Shown here: positions 12,551 to 33,040 of the stretch, piece by piece
Position numbering within the stretch: the first letter of the stretch is position 1
Layout of the letters: each line of letters begins with the position of its first letter
Assembly: GCF_002854065.1 (NCBI RefSeq)
Contig: NZ_CP024147.1
Origin: Escherichia coli
GTDB lineage: Bacteria; Pseudomonadota; Gammaproteobacteria; Enterobacterales; Enterobacteriaceae
Length of the DNA: 64,000 nt
Direction: 5' to 3' (one strand)
The notes under the pieces: generated by a model
What the model saw: the letters and a program-made list of their open reading frames with translations, nothing else
Database searches by the model: none
What the model was told of the DNA's origin: nothing
Made by a program: the position numbers and the translations under genes

Positions 12551-12596
12551 TAAACCGTTTGGATGCAATCCCTTGGCTATCCTGACGAGTTAACTG

Positions 12597-12628
12597 AAAG
12601 CACTGCTTAGGCAGTGCTTTTTTGTTTT
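12597..12628 (+). terminator. Intrinsic terminator after mepS
   Basis: Stem gaaagcactgc / gcagtgctttt with loop ttag, followed by a T-run to 12628. Confidence 0.65.
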
Positions 12629-12730
12629 CATTCATCAGAGAAAATGATGTTTCCGCGTCTTGATCCAGGCTATAGTCCGGTCATTGTTATCTTTTAAATG
12701 TTGTCGTAATTTCAGGAAATTAACGGAATC

Positions 12731-14287
12731 ATGTTCATACGCGCTCCCAATTCTGGACGTAAGCTCCTGCTTACCTGCATTGTTGCAGGCGTAATGATTG
12801 CGATACTGGTGAGTTGCCTTCAGTTTTTAGTGGCCTGGCATAAGCACGAAGTCAAATACGACACACTGATTACCGACGTACAAAAGTATCTCGATACCTA
12901 TTTTGCCGACCTGAAATCCACTACTGACCGGCTCCAGCCGCTGACCTTAGATACCTGCCAGCAGGCTAACCCCGAACTGACCGCCCGCGCGGCGTTTAGC
13001 ATGAATGTCCGTACGTTTGTGCTGGTGAAAGATAAAAAAACATTCTGTTCATCTGCGACCGGTGAGATGGACATTCCACTCAATGAATTGATTCCGGCGC
13101 TCGACATTAATAAAAATGTCGATATGGCGATCTTACCCGGCACGCCGATGGTGCCGAACAAACCCGCAATCGTCATCTGGTATCGCAACCCTTTGCTGAA
13201 AAATAGCGGCGTCTTTGCCGCTCTGAATCTCAACCTGACGCCTTCTCTCTTTTATAGTTCAAGGCAGGAAGATTACGATGGCGTCGCCCTCATTATTGGT
13301 AATACTGCGCTATCTACCTTTTCTTCACGTTTGATGAACGTTAATGAGTTAACCGACATGCCAGTCCGTGAAACTAAAATTGCGGGCATTCCTCTGACCG
13401 TTCGGCTTTATGCAGATGACTGGACATGGAACGATGTGTGGTACGCATTTTTACTGGGCGGCATGAGTGGAACTGTCGTTGGCCTGCTCTGCTATTACCT
13501 GATGAGCGTACGTATGCGCCCCGGCAGAGAAATCATGACCGCCATCAAGCGCGAACAATTTTACGTGGCGTATCAACCGGTGGTGGATACACAAGCTTTG
13601 CGAGTAACGGGCCTGGAAGTACTGCTACGCTGGCGGCATCCTGTCGCGGGAGAAATTCCCCCGGATGCCTTCATTAACTTTGCCGAATCGCAAAAGATGA
13701 TTGTGCCGCTGACTCAGCACCTGTTTGAGTTAATTGCCCGCGATGCCGCAGAATTAGAAAAAGTGCTGCCGGTAGGCGTCAAATTTGGCATTAACATTGC
13801 GCCGGACCATCTGCACAGCGAAAGCTTTAAAGCAGATATCCAGAAACTGCTCACTTCCCTACCCGCACACCATTTCCAGATTGTGCTGGAAATTACCGAG
13901 CGCGATATGCTGAAAGAGCAAGAAGCCACACAACTCTTCGCCTGGCTGCACTCGGTCGGCGTAGAAATTGCTATTGATGACTTCGGCACCGGGCACAGCG
14001 CGCTTATCTATCTTGAGCGTTTTACGCTCGATTATCTGAAAATTGACCGTGGATTTATCAACGCCATCGGTACGGAAACGATCACTTCACCCGTACTTGA
14101 CGCGGTGCTGACGCTGGCGAAACGCCTCAATATGCTGACGGTTGCTGAAGGGGTCGAAACGCCGGAACAGGCGCGATGGCTAAGCGAACGCGGCGTTAAT
14201 TTCATGCAAGGCTATTGGATTAGTCGCCCGTTACCGCTGGACGATTTTGTCCGCTGGCTGAAGAAACCGTATACGCCGCAGTGGTAA
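12731..14287 (+). CDS. pdeN: Membrane-anchored EAL-domain c-di-GMP phosphodiesterase (CSS-motif periplasmic domain)
   Basis: 518-aa ORF with N-terminal TM segment and C-terminal EAL domain (EVLLRW..., EITE, DDFGTG motifs); matches Rtn/PdeN as recalled. Confidence 0.88.
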   Translation: MFIRAPNSGRKLLLTCIVAGVMIAILVSCLQFLVAWHKHEVKYDTLITDVQKYLDTYFADLKSTTDRLQPLTLDTCQQANPELTARAAFSMNVRTFVLVKDKKTFCSSATGEMDIPLNELIPALDINKNVDMAILPGTPMVPNKPAIVIWYRNPLLKNSGVFAALNLNLTPSLFYSSRQEDYDGVALIIGNTALSTFSSRLMNVNELTDMPVRETKIAGIPLTVRLYADDWTWNDVWYAFLLGGMSGTVVGLLCYYLMSVRMRPGREIMTAIKREQFYVAYQPVVDTQALRVTGLEVLLRWRHPVAGEIPPDAFINFAESQKMIVPLTQHLFELIARDAAELEKVLPVGVKFGINIAPDHLHSESFKADIQKLLTSLPAHHFQIVLEITERDMLKEQEATQLFAWLHSVGVEIAIDDFGTGHSALIYLERFTLDYLKIDRGFINAIGTETITSPVLDAVLTLAKRLNMLTVAEGVETPEQARWLSERGVNFMQGYWISRPLPLDDFVRWLKKPYTPQW

Positions 14288-14368
14288 GGTGTGCTTACGT
14301 CCCTTATTATTCATAGTGAAAGCATGCCGGATTACGGCTAATGATGAGTAAAAGGAAATCCGTTGCAG

Positions 14369-16183
14369 ATGATTGTGCGCATACTGCTGCTGTTTATCGC
14401 TCTGTTCACCTTTGGTGCGCAGGCGCAGGCTATCAAGGAAAGCTATGCCTTTGCCGTGCTGGGCGAACCCCGGTACGCGTTTAATTTCAACCATTTTGAT
14501 TATGTGAACCCCGCCGCGCCAAAAGGTGGGCAGATAACGTTGTCAGCCCTCGGCACCTTCGATAATTTCAACCGCTATGCACTGCGCGGCAACCCGGGCG
14601 CACGCACCGAGCAGCTGTACGACACGCTATTTACGACTTCCGATGACGAACCAGGCAGTTATTACCCGCTGATTGCTGAAAGCGCACGCTATGCTGACGA
14701 TTATTCCTGGGTGGAGGTCGCTATTAATCCGCGCGCCCGTTTTCATGATGGTTCGCCCATTACTGCCCGCGATGTAGAGTTTACTTTTCAAAAATTTATG
14801 ACCGAAGGCGTGCCGCAATTTCGTCTGGTCTACAAAGGCACCACCGTCAAAGCCATTGCGCCGTTAACCGTGCGCATTGAGTTAGCTAAACCCGGCAAAG
14901 AAGATATGTTGAGTCTGTTTTCGCTGCCGGTATTTCCAGAAAAGTACTGGAAGGATCACAAACTTAGCGATCCGCTCGCCACGCCTCCGCTTGCCAGTGG
15001 TCCGTACCGAATTACGTCCTGGAAAATGGGGCAAAATATTGTCTATTCCCGCGTGAAAGATTACTGGGCAGCAAACTTACCGGTAAACCGTGGACGCTGG
15101 AATTTCGACACCATTCGCTACGATTATTACCTCGATGATAATGTCGCCTTTGAAGCGTTTAAAGCAGGTGCCTTTGATTTGCGTATGGAAAACGACGCTA
15201 AAAACTGGGCCACGCGTTATACCGGTAAAAATTTCGATAAAAAATACATCATCAAAGATGAGCAAAAGAACGAATCAGCCCAGGATACGCGCTGGCTGGC
15301 GTTTAATATCCAACGTCCGGTATTCAGCGATCGCCGGGTCCGGGAAGCAATCACCCTCGCCTTTGACTTTGAATGGATGAACAAGGCGTTGTTTTACAAT
15401 GCCTGGAGTCGCACGAACAGTTATTTTCAGAATACCGAATACGCGGCCAGAAATTACCCCGACGCCGCGGAGCTGGTGCTTCTGGCACCAATGAAAAAAG
15501 ATCTACCGCCAGAAGTCTTCACACAAATCTACCAGCCGCCGGTATCCAAAGGCGATGGCTACGATCGTGACAACCTGTTAAAAGCCGACAAACTTCTCAA
15601 CGAAGCGGGCTGGGTGCTGAAGGGTCAGCAACGCGTTAATGCCACAACGGGTCAGCCGCTCAGCTTTGAATTATTGCTTCCCGCAAGCAGCAATAGTCAG
15701 TGGGTATTGCCGTTCCAGCACAGCCTGCAACGGCTGGGTATCAACATGGACATTCGCAAGGTGGATAACTCGCAAATCACCAACCGCATGCGCAGTCGCG
15801 ACTATGACATGATGCCGCGCCTATGGCGGGCGATGCCGTGGCCCAGTTCCGATTTACAGATTTCCTGGTCATCGGAATATATCAATTCCACTTATAATGC
15901 CCCCGGCGTGCAAAGCCCGGTTATCGACTCGCTGATCAACCAAATTATTGCCGCGCAGGGAAATAAAGAAAAATTACTGCCGTTGGGGCGAGCACTGGAT
16001 CGCGTATTAACGTGGAATTATTACATGCTGCCAATGTGGTACATGGCGGAAGACCGTCTCGCCTGGTGGGATAAATTCTCCCAACCCGCTGTACGCCCTG
16101 TTTACAGCCTGGGTATCGATACCTGGTGGTATGACGTTAATAAAGCGGCCAAACTGCCGTCAGCCAGACAACAGGGAGAGTAG
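14369..16183 (+). CDS. yejA: ABC transporter periplasmic oligopeptide-binding protein (microcin C / peptide uptake)
   Basis: ATG at 14369 gives 604 aa (track ORF starts 2 codons earlier at TTG); signal peptide then family-5 solute-binding domain; first gene of yejABEF. Confidence 0.9.
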
Positions 16184-17278
16184 ATGGGCGCTTATCTGAT
16201 TCGCCGTCTGTTGCTGGTGATCCCAACGTTATGGGCGATTATCACTATCAACTTTTTCATCGTGCAAATTGCGCCTGGCGGTCCGGTCGACCAGGCCATC
16301 GCCGCCATTGAGTTTGGTAATGCCGGAGTATTACCCGGCGCAGGCGGTGAAGGCGTTCGCGCCAGCCATGCGCAAACGGGCGTCGGTAATATCAGCGACA
16401 GTAATTACCGTGGCGGACGCGGATTAGATCCAGAAGTGATCGCCGAGATCACTCATCGCTACGGTTTCGATAAGCCGATCCACGAACGTTACTTCAAAAT
16501 GCTCTGGGACTACATCCGCTTTGATTTTGGCGATAGCCTGTTTCGCAGCGCCTCGGTGCTGACGCTGATTAAAGACAGTCTGCCGGTTTCCATCACCCTC
16601 GGATTGTGGAGCACGCTGATTATCTATCTGGTGTCGATTCCGTTAGGCATTCGCAAAGCTGTTTATAATGGGAGCCGCTTTGACGTCTGGAGTAGCGCAT
16701 TTATCATCATCGGCTACGCTATTCCGGCCTTTTTGTTTGCCATCCTGCTGATTGTCTTCTTCGCGGGCGGCAGTTATTTCGACCTGTTCCCTCTACGCGG
16801 CCTGGTTTCCGCTAACTTTGATTCGCTGCCGTGGTATCAGAAAATCACCGATTATCTGTGGCATATCACGCTGCCGGTGCTGGCGACAGTGATTGGTGGC
16901 TTTGCGGCGCTGACCATGCTGACCAAAAACTCATTCCTTGATGAAGTGCGCAAGCAATACGTGGTGACCGCGCGTGCGAAAGGGGTAAGTGAAAAAAATA
17001 TTCTCTGGAAACATGTGTTCCGCAACGCCATGCTGCTGGTGATTGCCGGTTTTCCGGCGACGTTTATCAGCATGTTCTTCACCGGCTCGCTGCTGATTGA
17101 AGTGATGTTTTCACTCAATGGCCTTGGCTTACTGGGCTACGAAGCGACCGTCTCGCGCGATTATCCTGTAATGTTTGGTACCTTGTATATTTTCACCCTG
17201 ATTGGCCTGCTGCTGAATATTGTCAGTGATATCAGCTATACGCTGGTCGATCCGCGTATAGATTTTGAGGGACGTTAA
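16184..17278 (+). CDS. yejB: ABC transporter permease
   Basis: 364-aa polytopic ORF; start immediately after the yejA stop. Confidence 0.9.
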
Positions 17279-18303
17279 TGTCGCGACTCAGCCCCGTCAA
17301 TCAGGCCCGTTGGGCGCGTTTTCGCCATAACCGTCGCGGCTACTGGTCGTTATGGATTTTCCTCGTTTTGTTTGGTTTGAGTTTGTGTTCTGAACTTATC
17401 GCCAACGATAAACCGTTGCTGGTGCGTTATGACGGCAGTTGGTATTTCCCGTTGTTGAAAAATTACAGTGAAAGCGATTTTGGCGGCCCTCTGGCAAGTC
17501 AGGCTGATTATCAGGACCCGTGGCTGAAACAACGGCTGGAAAATAACGGCTGGGTACTGTGGGCACCGATTCGCTTTGGTGCTACCAGTATCAACTTTGC
17601 TACCGATAAGCCCTTCCCTTCTCCACCCTCCCGGCAAAACTGGCTGGGAACGGATGCCAACGGCGGCGATGTGCTGGCACGTATTCTCTATGGCACGCGG
17701 ATCTCGGTTCTGTTTGGCCTGATGCTGACTCTCTGTTCCAGCGTGATGGGCGTGCTGGCGGGGGCGCTACAAGGCTATTACGGCGGTAAAGTCGACCTCT
17801 GGGGACAACGCTTTATTGAAGTATGGTCGGGGATGCCGACGCTGTTTTTGATTATTTTACTTTCCAGCGTCGTACAGCCTAACTTCTGGTGGCTGCTGGC
17901 AATTACTGTCTTGTTTGGCTGGATGAGTCTGGTCGGCGTGGTGCGGGCGGAGTTTTTACGTACCCGTAATTTCGACTACATTCGTGCGGCGCAGGCGCTT
18001 GGCGTCAGCGATCGCAGTATCATCCTGCGTCATATGTTGCCTAATGCCATGGTCGCGACCCTCACCTTTTTACCGTTTATTTTATGTAGTTCGATCACCA
18101 CCCTGACCTCACTCGATTTCCTCGGCTTTGGTCTGCCGCTCGGTTCACCGTCACTCGGTGAACTGCTGTTACAAGGGAAAAATAACCTTCAGGCTCCGTG
18201 GCTTGGGATCACCGCCTTCTTGTCGGTGGCGATATTATTGTCTTTGCTGATCTTTATTGGTGAAGCCGTCCGCGACGCATTTGATCCTAATAAGGCGGTG
18301 TAG
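17278..18303 (+). CDS. yejE: ABC transporter permease
   Basis: 341-aa polytopic ORF; start overlaps the yejB stop by 1 nt. Confidence 0.9.
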   Translation: MSRLSPVNQARWARFRHNRRGYWSLWIFLVLFGLSLCSELIANDKPLLVRYDGSWYFPLLKNYSESDFGGPLASQADYQDPWLKQRLENNGWVLWAPIRFGATSINFATDKPFPSPPSRQNWLGTDANGGDVLARILYGTRISVLFGLMLTLCSSVMGVLAGALQGYYGGKVDLWGQRFIEVWSGMPTLFLIILLSSVVQPNFWWLLAITVLFGWMSLVGVVRAEFLRTRNFDYIRAAQALGVSDRSIILRHMLPNAMVATLTFLPFILCSSITTLTSLDFLGFGLPLGSPSLGELLLQGKNNLQAPWLGITAFLSVAILLSLLIFIGEAVRDAFDPNKAV

Positions 18304-18304
18304 C

Positions 18305-19894
18305 ATGACGCAAACTCTGTTAGCGATTGAAGATTTGTCGGTGGGTTTTCGCCATCAGCAAACCGTACGTACAGTAGTCAATGATGTTTCACTACAGATT
18401 GAGGCTGGCGAAACGCTGGCGCTGGTGGGTGAGTCAGGTTCAGGCAAAAGCGTTACCGCGCTGTCAATTTTACGCCTGCTCCCATCCCCGCCGGTTGAAT
18501 ATCTCTCCGGCGATATTCGTTTTCATGGCGAATCGCTGCTTCATGCCAGCGATCAAACGTTGCGCGGTGTACGCGGTAATAAGATCGCCATGATTTTTCA
18601 GGAGCCGATGGTGTCGTTAAATCCATTGCATACCCTGGAAAAACAGCTTTATGAAGTGCTTTCACTCCACCGCGGGATGCGTCGGGAAGCGGCTCGTGGC
18701 GAAATTCTTAACTGCCTTGATCGCGTCGGTATCCGCCAGGCGGCAAAACGGCTGACAGATTATCCGCATCAGCTCTCCGGCGGCGAACGCCAGCGGGTGA
18801 TGATTGCGATGGCACTGTTAACGCGACCGGAATTATTAATTGCCGATGAACCGACCACCGCACTGGACGTCTCTGTCCAGGCGCAGATTTTACAGCTGTT
18901 GCGCGAACTGCAAGGCGAGCTGAATATGAGCATGCTGTTTATTACTCATAACCTCAGCATTGTCAGAAAACTGGCCCACCGCGTGGCGGTAATGCAAAAC
19001 GGTCGCTGTGTCGAGCAAAATAACGCCGCTACGCTATTTGCCTCACCCACTCATCCTTACACACAAAAGCTACTCAACAGTGAACCGTCAGGCGACCCGG
19101 TGCCATTGCCAGAACCTGCCTCAACGTTGCTGGATGTTGAACAGCTTCAGGTTGCCTTCCCCATTCGCAAAGGGATTTTGAAGCGCATTGTGGATCATAA
19201 TGTGGTGGTGAAAAACATCAGTTTTACGCTACGAGCGGGTGAAACACTGGGTTTAGTGGGCGAGTCCGGTTCCGGGAAAAGCACGACGGGACTGGCGCTG
19301 CTGCGACTGATTAATTCTCAGGGCAGCATCATCTTTGACGGTCAGCCACTGCAAAATTTAAATCGCCGCCAGCTGTTACCTATTCGTCATCGCATTCAGG
19401 TGGTATTTCAGGATCCAAACTCCTCGCTCAACCCACGACTCAACGTTTTGCAGATTATTGAGGAAGGCTTACGGGTTCACCAGCCGACGCTTTCTGCCGC
19501 ACAACGCGAACAACAAGTGATAGCCGTGATGCATGAAGTGGGATTAGATCCTGAAACACGCCACCGTTATCCGGCGGAGTTCTCTGGTGGTCAGCGACAA
19601 CGTATTGCGATTGCCAGGGCATTAATTCTTAAGCCCTCGCTGATCATACTTGATGAACCGACATCATCACTCGACAAAACGGTACAGGCGCAAATATTGA
19701 CGCTATTGAAATCATTGCAACAAAAGCATCAACTGGCCTATTTGTTTATCAGCCATGATTTGCACGTTGTCCGCGCGTTATGTCATCAGGTTATCGTACT
19801 GCGACAAGGGGAAGTAGTGGAACAAGGACCGTGCGCGCGCGTGTTTGCCACACCGCAGCAGGAGTATACGCGTCAGCTACTGGCGTTGAGCTGA
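18305..19894 (+). CDS. yejF: ABC transporter ATP-binding protein with duplicated ATPase domains
   Basis: 529-aa product from ATG 18305 ([11 protein letters not shown]...); two Walker A (GESGSGKS) and two signature (LSGG) motifs; track ORF extends upstream in frame. Confidence 0.9.
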
Positions 19895-19897
19895 CAC

Positions 19898-20242
19898 TTA
19901 AAAAGGATTGTAGTTTGAAAAGGGTTCGGCAATTGCCACACCAAAATTTTTCAATCGGCATGTTGCAGCAAACTCGTCCTGGCGATTTACAAACAGGCAC
20001 GGCTCACCTTCACACTCCAGCACCGAACATGGAACTTCGATGTCGCTTAACTCCTGGCTTAGTTTATACATCACCGACCATGCATTATCACCATCCGGGC
20101 TAAGCAATTTAAGCGCCACCAGGCTGTTGTCACCGCACGGTCCATTTTGCGGAATCGGTTCAACCTTCGAACCTGCGAAACCAGCAGACCAGCGATAGTT
20201 CTGCGGCAGTCGATGGACGATTGAGAGTTGTAATGAAGTCAC
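19898..20242 (-). CDS. yejG: Uncharacterised protein YejG
   Basis: 114-aa ORF matching YejG as recalled; convergent with yejF with only 3 nt between stop codons. Confidence 0.85.
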
Positions 20243-22637: not shown

Positions 22638-24398
22638 ATGATTTTTACACTTCGCCCATATCAGCAAGAAGCCGTGGATGCCACGCTCAACCATTTTCGT
22701 CGTCATAAAACCCCTGCCGTTATCGTGCTGCCCACCGGTGCAGGTAAAAGCCTGGTGATAGCGGAACTTGCGCGGCTGGCTCGTGGTCGCGTGCTGGTGC
22801 TGGCACACGTTAAAGAACTGGTGGCGCAAAACCATGCAAAGTATCAGGCGCTGGGGCTGGAAGCCGATATTTTTGCCTCCGGGCTAAAGCGCAAAGAGAG
22901 CCACGGTAAAGTGGTATTTGGCAGCGTGCAATCAGTCGCCCGTAATCTTGATGCCTTTCAGGGTGAATTTTCGCTGTTGATTGTCGATGAATGCCACCGT
23001 ATTGGTGACGATGAAGAGAGCCAGTATCAGCAAATCCTTACTCACCTGACAAAAGTGAATCCCCACTTACGCCTGCTGGGGCTGACCGCCACGCCTTTTC
23101 GATTGGGCAAAGGCTGGATCTACCAGTTCCATTATCACGGCATGGTACGCGGCGATGAGAAAGCCCTTTTCCGTGACTGCATTTATGAGCTGCCGCTGCG
23201 TTATATGATTAAACACGGCTATCTGACGCCGCCAGAACGACTGGATATGCCAGTAGTGCAATACGATTTCAGCCGCTTGCAGGCACAGAGTAACGGGCTG
23301 TTCAGCGAAGCCGATCTCAACCGTGAGCTGAAAAAACAACAACGTATTACCCCGCACATCATCAGCCAGATTATGGAGTTTGCTGCAACACGCAAAGGGG
23401 TGATGATTTTCGCCGCCACCGTTGAACACGCAAAAGAGATTGTGGGATTACTACCCGCCGAAGATGCTGCACTGATTACTGGCGACACCCCCGGCGCTGA
23501 GCGCGATGTGTTAATTGAAGATTTTAAAGCCCAGCGTTTTCGCTATCTGGTCAACGTCGCAGTACTGACCACCGGATTTGACGCCCCGCACGTCGATCTT
23601 ATCGCCATTCTGCGCCCTACCGAATCAGTGAGTCTTTACCAACAAATTGTCGGGCGCGGTCTGCGTCTCGCTCCGGGCAAGACTGATTGTTTAATCCTTG
23701 ATTATGCGGGTAATCCTCACGATCTCTACGCGCCGGAAGTTGGTACACCTAAAGGCAAAAGTGACAACGTCCCGGTACAGGTTTTCTGCCCTGCCTGTGG
23801 TTTTGCCAACACCTTTTGGGGGAAAACGACCGCCGACGGGACATTGATTGAACACTTTGGTCGTCGCTGCCAGGGATGGTTTGAAGATGACGACGGTCAT
23901 CGCGAACAGTGTGACTTCCGTTTCCGTTTTAAAAATTGCCCGCAATGTAACGCGGAAAACGATATTGCCGCCCGCCGCTGCCGCGAATGTGACACCGTAC
24001 TGGTTGATCCGGATGATATGTTAAAAGCGGCGCTACGACTGAAAGACGCGCTGGTATTACGCTGTAGCGGCATGTCTTTACAGCATGGGCACGACGAGAA
24101 AGGCGAATGGTTGAAAATCACCTATTACGATGAAGACGGCGCGGATGTGAGTGAGCGTTTCCGTCTGCAAACGCCCGCCCAGCGTACCGCCTTCGAGCAG
24201 CTTTTTATCCGCCCGCATACGCGCACACCGGGCATCCCTCTGCGCTGGATCACCGCCGCCGATATCCTCGCCCAGCAAGCCTTATTGCGACACCCGGATT
24301 TTGTCGTTGCCCGCATGAAAGGTCAGTACTGGCAAGTGCGTGAAAAAGTGTTCGATTACGAAGGTCGTTTTCGTCGGGCGCACGAATTACGCGGTTAA
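22638..24398 (+). CDS. radD: Superfamily-2 DNA repair helicase RadD
   Basis: 586-aa ORF with Walker A (PTGAGKS), DECH box and C-terminal zinc-finger-like Cys clusters; matches YejH/RadD as recalled. Confidence 0.9.
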
Positions 24399-24414
24399 TG
24401 GTAGTTTTGATTGA

Positions 24415-24807
<393 letters not shown>

Positions 24808-24823
24808 TTGCTGAATAAGTTGT

Positions 24824-24851
24824 AAAAAACCCCGCTCCGGCGGGGTTTTTT
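24824..24851 (+). terminator. Intrinsic terminator after rplY
   Basis: aaaaaaccccgc - tccgg - cggggtttttt: GC-rich stem followed by T-run. Confidence 0.75.
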
Positions 24852-24887
24852 GTATCTGCAGATTATGCCTGATTACGGTATTGCTAT

Positions 24888-24920
24888 TTTTTGCAGGCCA
24901 GATAAGGCGTTCACGCCGCA
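24888..24920. repeat. Single REP-like palindromic element
   Basis: gccagataaggcgttcacgccgcatctggc: imperfect palindrome resembling REP units, between the rplY terminator and the yejK 3' end. Confidence 0.5.
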
Positions 24921-24945
24921 TCTGGCATTCAGAACACAAAGCCGA

Positions 24946-25953
24946 TTAATTGCCGCCAGACGTCCGGCGCTGCAATTGGTCGCGCAAATTCGGCGGCGTG
25001 CCTTTAATGGTCAAGGTATCGGTTGCTGGATCCCAGAAGATGCGTTCACCTAACAGCATCGCATCAAAGTTAATAGTCAAGCCACCGCCGCTACCGGCAA
25101 ACTTCGTCAACTGACGCAGTGTGCTACGGTCTGCCGGGAAGCTCTCTTCCAGTTCGTAGCCTTTTTCAGCCGCAAACTCCGTGAAGCTCACTTCGCTGAC
25201 GCCTGCCAGCTCTTTCGACAGCGACTCCAGTTCGATCTCTTCGCCTGCCTGCAGCTGCTCATTACAGTAGCTATAAACCTGCTGGCGCACGTTCTGTCGC
25301 TCTGCTTTATCCAGTTGTGCTTCGGCAGTGAAATCATCAACCGCTTGCAACAGCCCACGGTTTTGCGCTTTCGCGTTTAAACCTTCGCTGGCCCCGAGGA
25401 AATCCATAAAGAAATCCGCCACTTTGCGCCCTACTCTCCCTTTCAGGAAAGTGAGATAGCGGGTGGACTCTGGATTGGTTTCCCATTCGGTTAAATCGAT
25501 ACGCGCAACAATATCCGCATGATTGATATCAAGATAATGGGTTGGGTTGATGTCGAGATTTTCGTTAACGCGCATACTGCTCAGGTTGCTCAGAACTGCC
25601 ACCAGCAGATACTCCACCGCCAGATAACGGTAGTGGCAAAACAGCACGAATCCACCGTCAGCAAAAGGATATTTCGCTAATTCGTCACGCAGGCGACCGG
25701 TTGCCGCGCGGCTAAATGCCAGAAAGTCCTCTTCGCCCTGACGCTGTAAGCGCAGCGTCTGCGCCAGTTCACTCTCTTCGCTAAACAAGCCGTAAGCTTT
25801 ATTTTTGGCGCTATAGACCCGATGCAGTTCTGCCACCATCTCAACGACGGTTTCTGTCGGTTCCAGCAATGAATCGCGCAACACCAGCTCAAGGTTCTGC
25901 TCATCACGCTTGATAAGCTGGTGCAGAGCAATCTGGTTGATATCCAGACTCAT
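24946..25953 (-). CDS. yejK: Nucleoid-associated protein YejK/NdpA
   Basis: 335-aa ORF matching YejK as recalled. Confidence 0.92.
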
Positions 25954-26134
25954 GATAAACTCTCCTTTAAGACCGGGCGGTATTCAACCACCGCCGGTTA
26001 AGCGACGCAATAAAAGATGGCGGTCATTTTACAGAAGGCGGCGTAACGAGAATGATTTAACGCATAAAAAAGCAGAAAAAAAACCGTTGCTACGGTAATA
26101 TGTTGCCCTTTCATCAACTAACTGATTTCGATTT

Positions 26135-26362
26135 ATGCCACAAATTTCCCGCTACAGTGATGAACAGGTTGAACAATTGCTCGCAGAGCTGCTCAACGTA
26201 CTGGAAAAACATAAGGCTCCGACCGACCTTTCCCTGATGGTGTTAGGCAACATGGTCACTAACCTTATCAATACCAGCATTGCCCCGGCCCAACGCCAGG
26301 CAATTGCCAACTCTTTTGCCCGCGCCTTACAGTCCTCTATCAACGAAGACAAAGCGCACTAA
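26135..26362 (+). CDS. yejL: UPF0352 small protein YejL
   Basis: 75-aa ORF immediately upstream of yejM, divergent from yejK; matches YejL as recalled. Confidence 0.88.
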
Positions 26363-26381
26363 GGGAAACAGATAACAGGTT

Positions 26382-28142
26382 ATGGTAACTCATCGTCAGC
26401 GCTACCGTGAAAAAGTCTCCCAGATGGTCAGTTGGGGGCACTGGTTTGCACTGTTCAATATTCTGCTTTCGCTCGTCATTGGCAGCCGTTACCTGTTTAT
26501 CGCCGACTGGCCGACCACGCTTGCTGGTCGCATTTATTCCTACGTAAGCATTATCGGCCATTTCAGCTTCCTGGTGTTCGCCGCCTACTTGCTGATCCTC
26601 TTCCCGCTGACCTTTATCGTCGGCTCCCAGAGGCTGATGAGGTTTTTGTCCGTCATTCTGGCAACGGCGGGAATGACGCTATTACTGATCGATAGCGAAG
26701 TCTTTACTCGTTTCCATCTCCATCTTAATCCCATCGTCTGGCAACTGGTTATCAACCCAGACGAAAATGAGATGGCGCGCGACTGGCAGCTGATGTTCAT
26801 CAGCGTGCCGGTTATTTTATTGCTTGAACTGGTGTTTGCGACGTGGAGCTGGCAAAAGCTGCGCAGCCTGACGCGTCGTCGACGCTTCGCGCGCCCGCTG
26901 GCCGCATTCTTATTTATCGCCTTTATCGCCTCGCATGTGGTGTATATCTGGGCCGATGCCAACTTCTATCGCCCTATCACCATGCAGCGCGCTAACCTGC
27001 CGCTTTCGTACCCGATGACGGCGCGACGTTTTCTTGAGAAGCATGGCCTGCTTGATGCGCAGGAGTATCAACGCCGTCTTATTGAGCAAGGTAATCCAGA
27101 CGCCGTTTCCGTTCAGTATCCGTTAAGCGAACTGCGCTATCGCGATATGGGCACCGGGCAGAATGTGCTGTTGATTACTGTCGATGGCCTGAACTACTCA
27201 CGCTTCGAGAAGCAGATGCCTGCGCTGGCAGGTTTTGCTGAGCAAAATATTTCGTTCACGCGCCATATGAGCTCCGGCAACACTACAGACAACGGCATCT
27301 TTGGCCTGTTCTATGGCATCTCGCCAAGCTATATGGACGGCATTCTGTCGACCCGTACGCCTGCGGCATTAATTACTGCGCTTAATCAGCAAGGCTATCA
27401 GCTGGGGTTATTCTCATCAGATGGCTTTACCAGCCCGCTGTATCGCCAGGCATTGTTGTCAGATTTCTCGATGCCGAGCGTACGCACCCAATCCGACGAG
27501 CAGACCGCCACGCAGTGGATCAACTGGCTGGGACGCTACGCACAAGAAGATAACCGCTGGTTCTCGTGGGTCTCTTTCAATGGTACTAACATTGACGACA
27601 GCAATCAGCAGGCATTTGCACGGAAATATAGCCGGGCGGCAGGCAATGTCGATGACCAGATCAACCGCGTGCTCAATACACTGCGTGATTCTGGCAAACT
27701 GGACAATACGGTGGTGATTATCACTGCCGGTCGGGGTATTCCACTGAGCGAAGAGGAAGAAACCTTTGACTGGTCCCACGGTCATCTGCAGGTGCCATTA
27801 GTGATTCACTGGCCAGGCACGCCGGCGCAGCGTATTAATGCGCTGACTGATCATACCGATCTGATGACGACGCTGATGCAACGCCTGCTACATGTCAGCA
27901 CACCTGCCAGCGAATATTCGCAAGGTCAGGATTTGTTCAACCCTCAACGCCGTCATTACTGGGTTACCGCAGCGGATAACGATACGCTGGCAATTACCAC
28001 CCCGAAAAAGACGCTGGTGCTGAACAATAACGGTAAATACCGCACTTACAACTTACGTGGTGAAAGAGTGAAAGATGAAAAACCACAGTTAAGTTTGTTA
28101 TTGCAAGTGCTGACAGACGAGAAGCGTTTTATCGCTAACTGA
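26382..28142 (+). CDS. yejM: Inner membrane protein YejM/PbgA/LapC (5 TM + periplasmic sulfatase-like domain)
   Basis: 586-aa ORF with N-terminal TM segments; matches YejM as recalled; proL tRNA immediately downstream. Confidence 0.92.
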   Translation: MVTHRQRYREKVSQMVSWGHWFALFNILLSLVIGSRYLFIADWPTTLAGRIYSYVSIIGHFSFLVFAAYLLILFPLTFIVGSQRLMRFLSVILATAGMTLLLIDSEVFTRFHLHLNPIVWQLVINPDENEMARDWQLMFISVPVILLLELVFATWSWQKLRSLTRRRRFARPLAAFLFIAFIASHVVYIWADANFYRPITMQRANLPLSYPMTARRFLEKHGLLDAQEYQRRLIEQGNPDAVSVQYPLSELRYRDMGTGQNVLLITVDGLNYSRFEKQMPALAGFAEQNISFTRHMSSGNTTDNGIFGLFYGISPSYMDGILSTRTPAALITALNQQGYQLGLFSSDGFTSPLYRQALLSDFSMPSVRTQSDEQTATQWINWLGRYAQEDNRWFSWVSFNGTNIDDSNQQAFARKYSRAAGNVDDQINRVLNTLRDSGKLDNTVVIITAGRGIPLSEEEETFDWSHGHLQVPLVIHWPGTPAQRINALTDHTDLMTTLMQRLLHVSTPASEYSQGQDLFNPQRRHYWVTAADNDTLAITTPKKTLVLNNNGKYRTYNLRGERVKDEKPQLSLLLQVLTDEKRFIAN

Positions 28143-28216
28143 TTAATTATAAATCAGTTAGCGAAATATCTTACTTGCAATCGGTGTGGAAAACGGTAGT
28201 ATTAACAGCCACGAGT

Positions 28217-28293
28217 CGGCACGTAGCGCAGCCTGGTAGCGCACCGTCATGGGGTGTCGGGGGTCGGAGGTTCAAATCCTCTCGTGCCGACCA
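28217..28293 (+). tRNA. proL: tRNA-Pro
   Basis: 77-nt cloverleaf sequence CGGCACGTAGCGCAGCCTGGTAGCGCACCGTCATGGGGTG...TTCAAATCCTCTCGTGCCGACCA with encoded CCA end; acceptor stem CGGCACG/CGTGCCG; anticodon loop contains GGG (assigned from memory of proL). Confidence 0.92.
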
Positions 28294-28303
28294 AAAATCC
28301 CAA

Positions 28304-28333
28304 AAAAAACCAACCGTAAAGGTTGGTTTTTTT
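28304..28333 (+). terminator. Intrinsic terminator after proL
   Basis: aaccaacc - gtaaa - ggttggtt followed by TTTTT. Confidence 0.75.
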
Positions 28334-28394
28334 ATATCTGCATTTAATTCGATAAACAGACCGTGACACATCACGGCCTGTTTATTGTCTGTTA

Positions 28395-30986
28395 TCAGAA
28401 CGTCCAGACCACACCCGCCTGGGTATTCCACGGCGATTCTACCCCTGCGCCATTGCCATAGCTGACTGACAAATGACCGCTTAACGTCGGGGTAAACGAT
28501 GACCTTATCCCAGCCTGATAAACGCCACGGGTTCCAGCCACATCATTATTAAATTTGCCATCGTCATTAACTTTCACCTGGTTAGAATCGGCGTATTCCT
28601 GACGCACGGCGGCTTTCAGCCAGGGTTCCAGCGTCGTACCGTTTTGCAGGTCCATGTGATAGCTTACCGCCGTTCCCGCTTCAGCGCGTAATATCCGGGT
28701 ATTTCCCACGTCCGCGCGCATGCCGTTTGATAACGTGTAGTCCTGACCATCTGTGGTAAAGCCGGTAAAGGCCAGATAGGGTCTAACACTCCACAATCCG
28801 TCAACCCAACGGAACCCGCTCTCGACATGAGCACCCGCGCCGTTACTATTGTAATCGCCAAACGCTGTTGCCCCATTACTCATCTTGCCATGGATGGTGT
28901 TGGCAAAACGGTCAACTTTCACCACCCCATCAACATAGGCACCGTTCTGATGCTCCCAACCGGCATAAGCCCCCAGGGTATAGCTATCGATATTACCTTT
29001 TCCGCCGCGATCAAAACCAATATCAGAATGAGAGTAACCAAAGAACAAGCCGCGAATTGTACTGCTTTCTTCACGGGAGAAACGGCTATCGATACCGAGC
29101 GTCAGGCCCGTCAATGTTTGCTCAAAACCAGCTCCCGCATCAGTGGTCACGTTGTTGCGAGTGTTAATTGCCGAACTCCACATCGCCGTATCGTAACTAA
29201 CGCCTTTTACGCTACCAAGACGCTCACGCACGGTGTCCAGTTCTGCATCAAATACCAGCGGTTGTGCGGCCGCCATATTCAGCACATCAGTGGTTGAAGG
29301 GGTAATTTGCGCGCGATTCTCTGCCAAACTCCAGCTATGGTTGCCATTATCCAGCAAGGTATATTCATACGTACCGATATCAACAACGCCTCCGGCATTG
29401 CCCAACGTAAATGCAGCATCACCGCCGCCCGTTGTTACCAGTGTAAGGCTATCTCCTGCTGCCGGGCTGGCACCGGTGTCCGTCACGAATATTTTGAAAT
29501 CACCTGTTGCCTGACCGGTGACGTTGAGCTGATCGCTCTGATGATTAGCCATATCGGTACGCATATAAAAATTGCCGTTTCCCGACAGGGTATTGGTGGT
29601 CAACGTAATGAAATTTTCCGCACTTGCCGTCACTGATGAACGAGTCACTGGCTCATCCATCATAATCACATTTGCGTCAGACATCGCAAGGTTGGCTAAG
29701 TTGAGGAGGGTGTTTTGGTTCGTCGTAGTGATATCGGCAATGATGGTCCATACGCTATTTTCGAGCGAAACGTCCGCTTTGCTGGTATCCACGGCACCAT
29801 GCGTTCTAAAAGAAGCGCCCTCAGAAACCACTACCTTACCCACCAACATTGCGGGTGCATAATTTATTTGCGGCTTCATGACCTCAAGAATGCCATCATT
29901 CCCTCTGACTGACACGTTAACCATTGTGCCAGCCCAGACATTAGCGCGGCCATTGTTGATAACCATATTTTCAGAGATGGCTTTAGAGGAATACGTTATA
30001 CTTCCATTCTGATCTGATCGACCGAGATCATATACCGCATTTGCCTGCACTCTCGTCCCAGTATCCTTTCCCAGCGATTGCATAGTGGCATGCTCATCGA
30101 GGATAGTGTCAATGGCCTGCGTGTCCTCCATAACAATAAGCCCGGAACCATCATCCAGTTCATAATTTTTTGACACACCATCTTTTATACTAAATTGGCC
30201 TTTACTGTTTGTACCACTCACTTCCAGCGCATTCGTTGAGACAATTAATTTTCCGCCTGCTTTTTTATCAACGCCAGTTGCAGTCCCGCCATCCATAACC
30301 TCCAGTAAGCCGCCACTATCTACAGTAGTATTATAAGCGAAGTCATTTTCTTCAACTCGCAAACTTCCGCCGTTTTCCAACAGCATATTGTTAGCAATAC
30401 CATTCTTGATTTCGAACTGACCGAGACGGTTTGTTCCGAATACCTCCATGACCCGCGTGCTTGCTTTAATAGCACCGCCTGCTTTCTGATCTACCGCAAA
30501 TGCTAATCCCCCGTCTTTAACCTCCAGTAATCCTCCCTTTTCGATAGCGGCAAAGACGGCAATCCCATCTTTTTCAACAATTAAGCGCCCGCCTTTAATC
30601 GTGGGATCATTCGCCGCGCCATAAACCTGTAGCACACCATTATTGAGCGTAGTCTGGTTTGCCGCGCCACCCATTTGAACAATTTGATAACCATCATTTA
30701 ATACTGAGTATTCTGCGGTGCCATTCATTTCAATGTACTGATACCCGCCGTTAATTTCAGTATTACTACTTATACCAAATTCTTTAATATGCTGTTCTCC
30801 GCCAGAATTGATTTTCGTATTATTGGCGGTCCCATAAACCAGCTGGATATCTTTTTCCAGGACAACACCATCAACTGTCTCACCATACTCAACTGTTGAT
30901 GCCAATGCTATGGGTGAATATAACGCTGTAGCCACCAGAACAGATATTGCGGAACGACAAAGAGAAACAGAACCAGATTGATGCAT
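28395..30986 (-). CDS. yejO: AIDA-like autotransporter (type Va) with repetitive passenger and C-terminal beta-barrel
   Basis: 863-aa intact ORF; N-terminal signal peptide; internally repeated passenger segments (e.g. GGLLEV.DGG...VD.KAGG... recurring); C-terminus ...GVVWTF with terminal aromatic residue typical of outer-membrane barrels. Confidence 0.85.
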   Translation of the reverse strand: MHQSGSVSLCRSAISVLVATALYSPIALASTVEYGETVDGVVLEKDIQLVYGTANNTKINSGGEQHIKEFGISSNTEINGGYQYIEMNGTAEYSVLNDGYQIVQMGGAANQTTLNNGVLQVYGAANDPTIKGGRLIVEKDGIAVFAAIEKGGLLEVKDGGLAFAVDQKAGGAIKASTRVMEVFGTNRLGQFEIKNGIANNMLLENGGSLRVEENDFAYNTTVDSGGLLEVMDGGTATGVDKKAGGKLIVSTNALEVSGTNSKGQFSIKDGVSKNYELDDGSGLIVMEDTQAIDTILDEHATMQSLGKDTGTRVQANAVYDLGRSDQNGSITYSSKAISENMVINNGRANVWAGTMVNVSVRGNDGILEVMKPQINYAPAMLVGKVVVSEGASFRTHGAVDTSKADVSLENSVWTIIADITTTNQNTLLNLANLAMSDANVIMMDEPVTRSSVTASAENFITLTTNTLSGNGNFYMRTDMANHQSDQLNVTGQATGDFKIFVTDTGASPAAGDSLTLVTTGGGDAAFTLGNAGGVVDIGTYEYTLLDNGNHSWSLAENRAQITPSTTDVLNMAAAQPLVFDAELDTVRERLGSVKGVSYDTAMWSSAINTRNNVTTDAGAGFEQTLTGLTLGIDSRFSREESSTIRGLFFGYSHSDIGFDRGGKGNIDSYTLGAYAGWEHQNGAYVDGVVKVDRFANTIHGKMSNGATAFGDYNSNGAGAHVESGFRWVDGLWSVRPYLAFTGFTTDGQDYTLSNGMRADVGNTRILRAEAGTAVSYHMDLQNGTTLEPWLKAAVRQEYADSNQVKVNDDGKFNNDVAGTRGVYQAGIRSSFTPTLSGHLSVSYGNGAGVESPWNTQAGVVWTF

Positions 30987-31305
30987 TGAGCTTTCATCCT
31001 ATGAAATTAATTGCTGTTAAAAGCATTGGGTAGAGAAAATACCCATAGCTCCATACCCGGAGTCAGTTTTTAAAAACTGTTTAAAGAAATGCACAAGTAT
31101 TGTGATTGATTTTTTAGTTGTTTTTCTTGATGAGAAGCTGATGCAAAATTCCGTCTTTATAATGAAAATGATGCCAAAGCGAACGACAAGGTTGTAGTTT
31201 TCGCTACATGTCCATACATAAAATGGGGTAACATTCACGCGCCTGGTAGCGTTACCAACGCTACGCTCAAACATAATGATTCTAATAAAACCTCAGGAGA
31301 CTACT

Positions 31306-31953
31306 ATGCCTGAAGCAACGCCTTTTCAGGTGATGATTGTGGATGATCATCCACTTATGCGACGCGGTGTTCGTCAGTTACTGGAGCTTGATCCTAGCTT
31401 TGAAGTGGTCGCCGAAGCGGGCGACGGCGCGAGTGCTATCGATCTGGCGAATAGACTGGATATCGACGTGATCTTGCTGGATCTCAATATGAAAGGTATG
31501 AGTGGCCTGGATACCCTCAATGCCTTGCGCAGGGATGGCGTTACCGCGCAAATTATTATCCTGACCGTATCAGATGCCTCCAGCGATGTCTTTGCGCTGA
31601 TAGACGCAGGCGCAGACGGTTATCTGTTGAAAGACAGCGACCCGGAAGTGTTGCTGGAAGCGATTCGTGCCGGAGCGAAAGGCAGCAAAGTCTTTAGCGA
31701 ACGCGTCAATCAGTACTTACATGAACGTGAAATGTTTGGCGCGGAAGAAGATCCCTTCAGCGTGCTGACGGAGCGCGAGCTGGATGTTCTGCACGAGCTG
31801 GCACAGGGGCTGTCAAATAAACAGATTGCCTCGGTGTTGAATATTTCAGAGCAGACAGTAAAAGTACATATTCGCAATCTGCTGCGCAAACTCAATGTCC
31901 GCTCACGCGTGGCAGCCACCATTCTGTTCCTGCAACAACGCGGGGCACAATAA
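31306..31953 (+). CDS. narP: Nitrate/nitrite response regulator NarP
   Basis: 215-aa product from ATG 31306 (MPEATPFQVMIVDDHPLMRRG...), receiver + LuxR-type HTH; RBS aggaga at 31294-31299. Confidence 0.93.
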   Translation: MPEATPFQVMIVDDHPLMRRGVRQLLELDPSFEVVAEAGDGASAIDLANRLDIDVILLDLNMKGMSGLDTLNALRRDGVTAQIIILTVSDASSDVFALIDAGADGYLLKDSDPEVLLEAIRAGAKGSKVFSERVNQYLHEREMFGAEEDPFSVLTERELDVLHELAQGLSNKQIASVLNISEQTVKVHIRNLLRKLNVRSRVAATILFLQQRGAQ

Positions 31954-31957
31954 AAAT

Positions 31958-31993
31958 AGCCCGATGGCATGACCATCGGGCCTCTTTTTATTT
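31958..31993. terminator. Hairpin terminator shared by convergent narP and ccmH
   Basis: cccgatgg - catga - ccatcggg followed by cctctttttattt on plus; overlaps the ccmH stop codon; A-rich (taaaaata) on the other flank allows bidirectional function. Confidence 0.6.
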
Positions 31994-33040
31994 ACTCTCC
32001 TGCGGCGACAAATGTTGCATCGCCTGCGCGATACTACGTTCAATCACCGCACGGCGAGTATCGTTGGCAGGTAAGAGTTTCAACATCATCTCCCACGCGG
32101 CAACGGCTTCGCCAAATCGCTGCTGCTCAAAGGCATTAAACGCATACATGCTTAACACACGAATATTGCTATGGTCCGTTCTCACCAACTGGCGCAGCAG
32201 TTCGCCGCCGAGGCGGTTGTCGTTGGGATCAGATGAACGTGTCAACGCTTCAGCATAACCCAGTGCGGCATCGCTGTTTTTCGGATCGAGGCGATACGCA
32301 GTAGCGTATGCATCGGTGGCGATACTGGCGTTACCCAGCGCCATGCCAACGCGACCCAACATAATCCAACCTTCTATATCTCCCGGATTTTTTTGCAGTT
32401 GAGTACGCATCCCCAGCGCAAGGCGCGACATCTCTTCTTCGTTGAGCGGATCGGCTTTCGGATCCAGCGCCCTGTCCAGCAACGCCGGAGCCTGTGCCGT
32501 GGCCTGCTGCCAGATTTTCACCTGCTGATAATTGCCAGTCTGGTAGTAGCTGACGCCAGCCACAATTAACGCCACCACAATACCCGGCAGATAAACAACA
32601 TATCCGGCACGCTTACCTTCCGGCACGCTTTGTTCAGGAAACGCTTCCGGTACCACGCGTACCCGACGCCGCGAACGGGCGTATATGACCCAACCGCCAA
32701 TACCAATAGCCACTACCGGAAGCACCCACAGCAGCACGGTCAGCGGCGTTAACGGCGGATCGTAAGTGACGAAGTTGCCGTAACGCGCCACCATATAATC
32801 GACAATCTCTTTCTTACTTTTGCCTTCCTGCATCAGTTCATACACTTTCTGGCGCAGGTCGGTGGCAATCATCGAGTTGGAATCGGCAATGCTGTTGTTC
32901 TGGCATTTCGGGCAACGCAGTTCTTCAGTGAGCTGACGGAACTGTTGTTCCTGTGCTTCATCTTTAAACTGCAACACATCGATGGTCGCCAGCGCTGAGC
33001 CGGAGATCATCAGCATCAGCACGCCCAATAAAAACCTCAT
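31988..33040 (-). CDS. ccmH: Cytochrome c maturation protein CcmH (CcmH/CcmI fusion, TPR repeats)
   Basis: 350-aa ORF with signal peptide, LRCPKC motif and TPR-like C-terminus; last gene of the nap-ccm cluster. Confidence 0.92.
   Translation of the reverse strand: MRFLLGVLMLMISGSALATIDVLQFKDEAQEQQFRQLTEELRCPKCQNNSIADSNSMIATDLRQKVYELMQEGKSKKEIVDYMVARYGNFVTYDPPLTPLTVLLWVLPVVAIGIGGWVIYARSRRRVRVVPEAFPEQSVPEGKRAGYVVYLPGIVVALIVAGVSYYQTGNYQQVKIWQQATAQAPALLDRALDPKADPLNEEEMSRLALGMRTQLQKNPGDIEGWIMLGRVGMALGNASIATDAYATAYRLDPKNSDAALGYAEALTRSSDPNDNRLGGELLRQLVRTDHSNIRVLSMYAFNAFEQQRFGEAVAAWEMMLKLLPANDTRRAVIERSIAQAMQHLSPQESK

Follow-up and report, generated by a model that had tools for sequence, protein, structure and literature searches.

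An intact allele of yejO, a predicted type Va autotransporter gene, in a probable old single-gene insertion between proL and narP of Escherichia coli

YejO among the described autotransporters

The self-associating autotransporters (SAAT) Ag43 (Flu/Cah) and TibA/AIDA-I combine a signal peptide, an AIDA-type beta-helix with rungs of about 19 residues, a pertactin-like junction and a beta-barrel, an architecture that they have in common with YejO. Among solved structures, none comes closer to YejO in sequence or fold than Ag43 and TibA; the likeness is one of fold, and identity in the structural alignments is only about 22-26 %. YejO reaches 134.4 bits against the Ag43/Cah model NF033177 and 69.9 bits against the AIDA-I model NF033176, the cut-off being 1200 in both cases (the equivalog cut-off for NF033177), and is therefore a member of neither family and a structural relative of Ag43. 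Compared with Ag43 and AIDA-I, its passenger is shorter (about 525 aa) and it lacks a phase-variation apparatus. Repeats of the TIGR04415 'O-heptosylation-target' type are present in YejO; no heptosyltransferase (aah) or other glycosyltransferase gene lies beside yejO, whose only neighbours are proL and narP. The nearest paralog type outside the locus is YpjA/EhaD, which is 38 % identical over 98 % of the length. YpjA/EhaD, YcgV and YfaL/EhaC are encoded at other loci and form a clearly separate orthologous group from yejO. They are cryptic, poorly expressed chromosomal genes for AIDA-I-type adhesins, which yejO would resemble in this respect.

The gene described here lies in a window of 64,000 nucleotides of E. 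coli DNA, the whole stretch that was analysed. Its product has the same locus and the same 863-aa length as YejO of K-12 (b2190) and of O157:H7 (WP_000554210.1), and is 98-99 % identical to them. The 3.7-kb segment 27900-31600 is 100 % identical at the DNA level to E. coli CUWW06, in which PGAP annotates yejM, tRNA-Pro, 'autotransporter YejO' (WP_050438650.1) and narP. Annotated YejO proteins in thousands of genomes with the order yejM-proL-yejO-narP are 98-100 % identical to the product of the window, so that both high full-length identity and the conserved position between proL and narP place it in the YejO orthologous group. The protein cluster drawn at 90 % identity contains 16,859 member sequences, every named one from E. 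coli, and intact forms of 863-864 aa predominate among the YejO clusters. The window contains an uninterrupted, wild-type copy of yejO, a chromosomal gene already known from E. coli. A first-pass annotation of this DNA had already read it as an uninterrupted 863-aa AIDA-like autotransporter, which the RefSeq name "autotransporter YejO" bears out. The same annotation placed yejO directly downstream of proL; the gene does adjoin the tRNA gene, at a distance of 101 bp, but the two are convergent, 3' end to 3' end, and not co-oriented. An intact copy of a known gene for a type Va autotransporter, carried on an ancient and vertically inherited single-gene insertion, is very probably the best overall explanation of the locus. 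The gene, its family and its IS5 lesion in K-12 are already documented and RefSeq annotates the exact protein; the locus thus has little importance beyond good annotation.

Domain architecture and the surrounding features

Table 1. Features of the proL-yejO-narP region, in window coordinates.
Feature	Position	Strand	Basis or remark
proL, tRNA-Pro, anticodon GGG	28217..28293	(+)	ARAGORN; Rfam RF00005, 54.9 bits
proL terminator, bidirectional hairpin with A and T runs on either side	28303..28333	.	terminator scan
GC-rich hairpin just 3' of the yejO stop codon, inside the insert; putative yejO terminator	28361..28376	(-)	terminator scan and sequence
yejO CDS	28395..30986	(-)	863 aa, ATG start, intact; predicted type Va / AIDA-I-type autotransporter
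Linker and predicted 12-strand-type autotransporter beta-barrel, aa 556-863 and stop	28395..29321	(-)	PF03797, TIGR01414
Pertactin-like C-terminal passenger region, aa 431-555, putatively autochaperone-type	29322..29696	(-)	PF03212
Passenger, aa 30-430, AIDA-repeat right-handed beta-helix (predicted)	29697..30899	(-)	Pfam AIDA, AlphaFold2, Foldseek
Predicted Sec-type signal peptide, codons 1-29, MHQSGSVSLCRSAISVLVATALYSPIALA/STVEYG	30900..30986	(-)	sequence inspection
AT-rich yejO 5' region, putative promoter and leader; right part of the insertion	30987..31192	(-)	alignment
narP upstream region, ancestral narP promoter and Shine-Dalgarno	31193..31305	(+)	alignment; blastn
narP, 215 aa, right-hand chromosomal neighbour	31306..31953	(+)	PGAP annotation of the identical genome

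The succession of signal peptide, AIDA-repeat beta-helix, pertactin-like region and beta-barrel is, as far as sequence and fold predictions go, that of a type Va autotransporter (Table 1). The signal peptide predicted by inspection (MHQSGSVSLCRSAISVLVATALYSPIALA/S) has a basic n-region with arginine, a hydrophobic core and an A-L-A (AXA) site. The autotransporter model TIGR01414 is matched at 4.8e-111 (371.9 bits, the cut-off being 16), and the sequence matches of the protein in the PDB are Ag43, Vag8, TibA, the BrkA barrel and pertactin. The passenger matches PF16168 (AIDA) at 6e-53, and residues 431-555 match PF03212 (Pertactin) at 3.2e-45 and the pertactin structure 1dab at 6.8e-18; an autochaperone role may be proposed for the latter region. 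The barrel matches PF03797 at 6.1e-46 (aa 602-841), the BrkA barrel 3qq2 at 1e-18 (aligned aa 582-863) and Vag8 7akv at 1.9e-35, and it has a terminal aromatic residue, ending in VVWTF.

The modelling proposed in the first pass gave a confident passenger but not a confident barrel. With a shallow alignment of 10 ortholog sequences as AlphaFold2 input, the passenger is modelled as all beta with a pLDDT of 86-97 over residues ~30-445; its best Foldseek matches are Ag43 (7koh, 7ko9 and 4kh3, E values of 2e-21 to 4e-18) and TibA, with a probability of 1.0. Residues 505-863 have a pLDDT below 50, and the assignment of the barrel therefore rests on the sequence profiles. The unconfident barrel model and the curvature of the helix account for the low TM-scores to Ag43, which lie at 0.22-0.44. 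The passenger had also been described as internally repetitive, which is true of the protein and not of the DNA. Two modules of 74 aa (aa 151-224 and 225-298, jointly window positions 30093-30536) are identical at 38 of 74 residues, yet their DNA identity is only 53 %; Tandem Repeats Finder detects nothing in the passenger DNA, and a direct-repeat search there yields only short pairs at chance level.

On the right-hand side, the gap between yejO and narP had been given as 289 bp (30987-31275); it in fact spans 30987-31305, or 319 bp, the start of narP being at 31306. This start, which Citrobacter shares, is preceded at a distance of 7 nt by an AGGAG Shine-Dalgarno sequence, on which grounds the in-frame ATG at 31276 was rejected. 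The gap was correctly described as AT-rich (GC 0.367, against 0.516 across the whole window) and contains no IS element. Its two parts differ in their conservation: 30987..31192 is conserved with E. albertii and missing from the empty Citrobacter site, whereas 31193..31305 is conserved in yejO-free genomes of Citrobacter. A scan for consensus sigma-70 sites finds no promoter in the gap and overall fewer sites than in shuffled sequence, and therefore no mapped yejO promoter is claimed. An 85-aa reading frame within the gap (31017-31274, minus strand) and reading frames overlapping proL have no PGAP annotation and are taken as spurious. On the left-hand side, the hairpin at 28361..28376 would serve yejO as its own terminator. 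The tRNA is the only Rfam family found in 27500-32500, since an OrzO-P match on the terminator hairpins scores 31 bits, where the gathering score is 60, and is attributable to chance.

Edges, distribution and age of the probable insertion

Two Citrobacter-type loci (L012 and L014) have the order yejM-proL-narP, 362 bp lying between yejM and the start of narP. Their homology to the window by blastn and alignment stops at about 28335-28348, the last conserved block being the proL terminator hairpin, and restarts at about 31193, so that the empty sites join the proL terminator cleanly to the narP promoter. As judged from these alignments, yejO together with its putative terminator and its AT-rich putative promoter region is a single-gene insertion of about 2.85 kb, extending from about 28349 to 31192.

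The first-pass annotation regarded yejO as a small horizontally acquired islet. The part of this claim that stands is the insertion relative to the Citrobacter-type proL-narP junction and the mildly AT-rich passenger; the recent, strain-specific character of the islet does not. Like the tRNA-associated islands (for example Salmonella SPI-12 and P4-like elements, both at proL), yejO is adjacent to proL, is inserted relative to related genera, and has an AT-richer passenger and flanks. Unlike them, it is a single gene that has neither an integrase nor flanking direct repeats, is fixed in E. coli and also occurs in E. albertii. In other strains, the 3' end of proL (about 28270-28295) is the att core for integrative elements, as in strain LR-27, where an integrase remnant is flanked by a 25-bp duplication of 28271-28295.

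That yejO is a recently acquired tRNA-associated islet setting this strain apart from typical E. coli is exceedingly improbable. Such an origin would fit the position beside a proven integration hotspot (PMC4924310), the absence of yejO from this junction in Citrobacter-type genomes, the AT-rich flanking gaps and the composition of the passenger (GC3 0.414, the mean for the genes of the window being 0.572). However, of 5,426 complete E. coli genomes, all but one (5,425) have yejO at this locus, either intact or as a remnant, and 4,284 retain 80 % or more of the region; this distribution effectively refutes a recent arrival. E. albertii has a positional ortholog at the same site, with a dS of 0.79 that is near the 0.44-0.65 of yejM, narP, ccmH and yejK. 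No integrase or other mobility gene occurs between proL and narP, where yejO is the sole gene. Allowing up to 3 mismatches, the window contains the tRNA 3' end only once, and the best candidate for an att remnant in 28294-31500 has 9 mismatches in 24, which is the level of shuffled sequence. Moreover, a comparison of strains, in agreement with published work (PMC4924310), places the elements that truly integrate at proL between the tRNA and yejO. The whole gene has low values of GC (0.483, 6th lowest of 54 genes), GC3 (0.468, 4th lowest) and codon fit (8th lowest), but the z-scores for GC and codon usage are only -1.2 to -1.7 and the barrel is native-looking, with a GC3 of 0.528. Thus, the site proves to be almost universally conserved while composition is not fully indistinguishable from that of the neighbouring genes, and of the two observations that the first pass had named as telling jointly against an islet, only conservation was obtained in full. 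The opposite possibility, that yejO was ancestral at this junction among a larger set of Enterobacteriaceae, of which Citrobacter, Salmonella and others have lost it, is less remote but still improbable. It would agree with the missing integration scars, with the native-looking barrel and with the dynamic state of the Citrobacter slot at proL, where different cargo in L011, L016, L017 and L020 makes deletions plausible. It would also agree with the failure to find a donor: plasmid matches of at least 90 % identity turn out to be chromosomes, or else very large replicons deposited as plasmids, and genuine plasmid and phage relatives are at most 38-50 % identical. Against it, tblastn at 1e-8 finds no YejO homolog within 10 kb in any of 78 yejM-anchored loci from outside Escherichia, the close homologs recovered from 5.8 billion proteins are all from Escherichia, L012 and L014 join cleanly, and both the passenger and the promoter region are rich in AT.

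The preferred reading is that of an insertion which is ancient, vertically inherited and genus-wide, not strain-specific, because 5,425 of 5,426 genomes are occupied, E. albertii carries the gene at the same site and synonymous divergence resembles that of the neighbours; for Escherichia beyond E. coli, the scan retrieved E. albertii and none of E. fergusonii, E. marmotae or E. ruysiae. The gene would have entered the proL-narP junction before E. coli and E. albertii separated and would have been inherited vertically since. As an ancient insertion of the Escherichia lineage, yejO is accordingly not to be scored as recent horizontal transfer.

Inactive alleles and the standing of the intact gene

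In K-12, yejO is a pseudogene that IS5K splits close to its start (PMC11005336, PMC11677980). The first pass had named the pseudogene correctly, K-12 carrying an IS5-inactivated copy and the window an uninterrupted one, but had placed the IS5 between yejO and narP. The element in fact lies within yejO, after about codon 21-22 and among the signal-peptide codons, with a 4-bp target duplication (ATAA, window 30920-30923). Removal in silico of the IS5 and one copy of the duplication restores a clean 863-aa reading frame. The K-12 pseudogene is thus an exception caused by one IS5, and the strain described here keeps the ancestral intact form.

Inactivation is not confined to K-12. Among the 5,426 complete E. 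coli genomes, an IS5 junction in yejO is found in 356, a start codon changed from ATG to ATT in 777, the W789* allele (TGG to TGA in the codon at 28620-28622, labelled 'internal stop' by PGAP) in 1,158 and large deletions in about 1,140. The routes comprise IS5 (K-12), IS2, start-codon loss with the W789* allele, and double deletions of the ST131/ST95 type, and yejO has been reported as missing from ST131 (PMC5654935). Several lineages have thus lost the gene independently of one another, and the frequency of inactivation (about half of genomes or more) shows that it is dispensable in many of them. At most about 51 % of complete genomes have an apparently intact yejO, and the strain of the window, with its ATG start and the W789 codon (TGG) intact, belongs to this roughly one half of the species. 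For the same reason, work on the uncharacterised YejO adhesin is best done in O157:H7 or in a strain such as the present one, and not in K-12, ST131 or the W789* clade.

By analogy with its family, YejO would be directed to the periplasm by its Sec signal peptide, BAM would insert the C-terminal beta-barrel into the outer membrane, and the AIDA-repeat passenger would be threaded to the cell surface with the assistance of the pertactin-like region, where, being structurally of the Ag43/TibA type, it would promote adhesion or aggregation. A literature search returned no functional study of YejO and no surface display or adhesion experiment in any strain. Given the intact reading frame and a dN/dS well below 1, a functional YejO in this strain is plausible. 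The dN/dS against E. albertii is 0.21 overall, 0.33 for the passenger and 0.06 for the barrel, and lies at 0.08-0.25 within E. coli; these values indicate strong purifying selection on the barrel and weaker purifying selection on the passenger. Under laboratory conditions the gene is probably poorly expressed, and it may be silenced.

The gene may nevertheless be intact but cryptic in this strain, silenced and decaying, its intactness being without phenotypic meaning; we consider this unlikely, but less so than the other alternatives. In favour of a cryptic state, few genes of K-12 are detected as rarely as yejO, whose transcripts appear in only 106 of 3,376 RNA-seq sets (PMC10392735), although these data are confounded by the IS5 that lies between the yejO promoter and the gene. 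The promoter region is AT-rich and of a type typically bound by H-NS, which may thus silence the gene (a literature search on H-NS control of yejO returned nothing relevant), and the scan for sigma-70 sites is likewise compatible with silence, as are at least 4 independent routes of inactivation. In contrast, the low dN/dS ratios, the predominance of intact forms of 863-864 aa and the conservation of the promoter region with E. albertii speak against decay.

The retention of yejO in some lineages and its loss in others may further suggest antagonistic selection specific to lineages, in which, for example, the Escherichia-specific YejO is favoured as an adhesin in some niches and disfavoured in others as a target of phage or immunity, and not simple neutral decay. 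This reading, which we regard as rather doubtful, is drawn from purifying selection in about half of the lineages, at least 4 convergent losses and the gain and loss of passenger modules. The in-frame variants of the passenger found in E. coli are shorter by 74 aa, shorter by 40 aa or longer by 72 aa, and some strains have lost one module through deletion of aa 168-241.

An uninterrupted yejO beside proL

The yejO gene in this strain is an uninterrupted autotransporter gene next to proL, as the first-pass annotation had described; it retains W789 and runs convergently with proL at a spacing of 101 bp. The region 27900-31600 is 100% identical to that of E. coli CUWW06, for which the PGAP annotation gives yejM, tRNA-Pro, 'autotransporter YejO' (WP_050438650.1) and narP; across the full 64 kb, 22 SNPs separate the window from CUWW06, and none of them falls within 24046-31395. 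The gap between yejO and narP is indeed free of any IS element. Its length is 319 bp (GC 0.367) and not the 289 bp first given, because narP starts at 31306, a start that has an AGGAG Shine-Dalgarno sequence and is conserved in Citrobacter.

Features of the yejO region and states of yejO among complete E. coli genomes (positions in the window)
Feature	Position	Strand	Genomes	Remark
tRNA-Pro(GGG) gene (proL)	28217-28293	plus		tRNA call and Rfam tRNA
putative yejO terminator hairpin	28361-28376			inside the inserted segment
yejO ORF	28395-30986	minus		863 codons, ATG-initiated
Two 74-aa modules	30093-30536			aa 151-298
TIGR04415 match	30280-30392			aa 198-234
ATAA duplicated at K-12 IS5	30920-30923			4 bp
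narP start	31306
Any match to yejO region			5,425/5,426
At least 80% of region in one place			4,284/5,426
Double-deletion remnants	28425-29053 and about 29431/29511 to 30504/30584		~1,140	these segments missing; most of barrel and passenger absent
TGG>TGA stop at codon 789	28620-28622		1,158	PGAP 'internal stop' pseudogene
ATG>ATT start codon	30984-30986		777
Exact K-12 IS5::yejO junction			356/5,426	examples listed are K-12 derivatives

The first-pass annotation also held that K-12 yejO is a pseudogene with an intergenic IS5. The gene is broken by IS5 in K-12 derivatives, but the element sits within yejO, past about codon 21-22, and is bordered by a 4-bp duplication. Deleting IS5 in silico together with one of the two duplicate copies yields a clean 863-aa ORF; thus, IS5 is the sole lesion of K-12 yejO. 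On the other side of narP, the narP-ccmH spacer of K-12 (6755-6964 of the K-12 locus) is about 176 bp longer than that of the window (31954-31987), the extra DNA consisting of two REP-like palindromes (a BIME-type element) with a duplicated terminator hairpin on its flanks; the window has a single hairpin only.

Protein architecture and expression

YejO is a classical type Va, AIDA-I-type autotransporter. Pfam identifies AIDA repeats (6e-53), a pertactin domain at aa 431-555 (3e-45) and an autotransporter beta-domain at aa 602-841 (6e-46). NCBIfam TIGR01414 scores 372 bits; the equivalog models for Ag43 and AIDA-I in NCBIfam stay far under their cut-offs. Supporting this classification, the N-terminus shows the features expected for a Sec signal peptide, VVWTF forms the C-terminus, and the sequence matches of the protein among solved structures are Ag43 passengers, Vag8, TibA, the BrkA barrel and pertactin. 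An AlphaFold2 model built from ten orthologs is an all-beta solenoid over residues ~30-445 (pLDDT 86-97) and is not confident past residue 505; Foldseek groups it with the passengers of Ag43 and TibA (E from 2e-21 to 4e-9). The passenger, described earlier as internally repetitive, contains two 74-aa modules identical at 38 of 74 residues, but the repetition is confined to the protein: DNA identity is only 53%, and no DNA repeats were detected in the passenger region. By analogy with the family, YejO would follow its secretion route and may have an adhesive function.

The AT-rich putative promoter region of yejO is conserved with E. albertii, and a simple scan of it finds no consensus sigma-70 promoter. 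H-NS-type silencing is a reasonable inference, for which no support was found in the literature searched. TIGR04415, an NCBIfam strand-loop-strand repeat named as an O-heptosylation target, matches with 67 bits (cut-off 30); yejO has no linked gene for a heptosyltransferase.

An old insertion beside a tRNA hotspot

Compared with other genera, yejO is inserted DNA beside a tRNA hotspot, and it is intact here while broken in K-12. In a synteny scan anchored on yejM (one genome per species, 80 loci), the yejM-proL linkage is kept throughout. In two Citrobacter-type genomes narP starts 362 bp past yejM with nothing between, and homology of this empty site with the window covers the proL terminator hairpin, ends at ~28335-28348 and picks up again at ~31193. 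Thus, yejO, its own putative terminator hairpin and the AT-rich 5' region constitute a single-gene insertion of ~2.85 kb. No integrase accompanies it, and a search for a further copy of the tRNA 3' end came up empty, its best match (9 mismatches in 24) being at the level of shuffled sequence.

The suggestion of a horizontally acquired, tRNA-adjacent islet stands as to insertion and location, but not as a recent or strain-specific acquisition, which is the wrong reading: E. albertii has an ortholog, and nearly every complete E. coli genome has a match. Among 54 window genes, yejO ranks 6th lowest in GC (0.483), 4th lowest in GC3 (0.468) and 8th poorest in fit to local codon usage. The deviation lies mostly in the passenger (GC3 0.414); the barrel (0.528) resembles the neighbours. 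The homolog P0074 (76% identity) occupies the same ccm-narP-yejO-yejM-yejL-yejK context, with flanks 99.3% identical to those of the E. albertii type strain. Against this ortholog, dS is 0.79 for yejO and 0.44-0.65 for yejM, narP, ccmH and yejK; dN/dS for yejO is 0.21 overall (passenger 0.33, pertactin region 0.13, barrel 0.06), and within E. coli 0.08-0.25. The insertion is thus older than the split of the two species, and yejO has since been inherited vertically under purifying selection.

A search of plasmids and phages turned up no close relative. The apparently plasmid-borne hits H103-H105 and H107 are false: they come from several records of 1.4-4.9 Mb in the plasmid collection that are evidently chromosomes of E. 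coli or replicons of very large size. The end of Mu record LR595867.1 (Escherichia virus Mu_3F6; bases 2-133) matches yejO (aa 473-516) without a difference over 133 nt, presumably as host DNA on a packaged Mu genome and not as a phage gene.

Variation of yejO and of the proL slot

Intactness of yejO is far from universal among 5,426 complete E. coli genomes. If the nonsense and IS5 classes are taken away from the 4,284 genomes that hold 80% or more of the region at one site, ~2,770 genomes with an apparently intact copy (51%) remain as an upper bound, O157:H7 included. The structure of the deletion remnants agrees with the reported lack of yejO in ST131 (PMC5654935), and a copy interrupted by IS2 also occurs among matched genomes. 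In-frame variants make passenger length polymorphic. Some strains have lost exactly one 74-aa module (deletion of aa 168-241) and have proteins of 789/790/799 aa (e.g. WP_000554212.1 of strain 20-20); further variants are deletions of aa 241-280 and 632-665 and an insertion of 72 aa after aa 473. The gene is a known and annotated autotransporter gene, genus-wide and often pseudogenised. A common pseudogene allele (loci L092 and L096) combines W789* with ATG>ATT; gene callers re-start it at V18 as a 771-aa 'autotransporter', which accounts for 42 of 120 clusters among the matches listed.

True proL-integrating elements sit between the tRNA gene and yejO. Strain LR-27 has an integrase remnant there, bounded by a 25-bp att duplication, and Shigella flexneri a gtrIC prophage remnant (PMC4924310). 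The E. albertii type strain NBRC 107761 carries a P4-like integrative element of ~8.25 kb at this position (11990-20160 of its locus). The genes of this element specify an integrase containing an arm-type DNA-binding domain, Ash, a DUF927 primase-like protein, SSB and a protein with a ProQ/FinO domain. The non-coli Escherichia sp. MOD1-EC7003 (11850-13298 of its locus) shows no YejO match in the 1.5 kb from proL to the contig end; a 212-aa ORF without a Pfam hit lies there, and what follows proL is therefore not yejO. Other Citrobacter genomes hold differing low-GC cargo in the proL-narP slot: a DUF1493 ORF (L017), a DUF6056 fragment (L011), or a 3.3-kb insert that has a 48-nt duplicate of proL at its border and contains an integrase-like remnant and a TolA-C-like ORF (L016). 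In Citrobacter amalonaticus S646 the slot is occupied by a chromosomal colicin-like ORF of 464 aa (12861-14255 of its locus, minus strand) with a pore-forming Colicin domain (9.6e-57) and a Cloacin-type domain.
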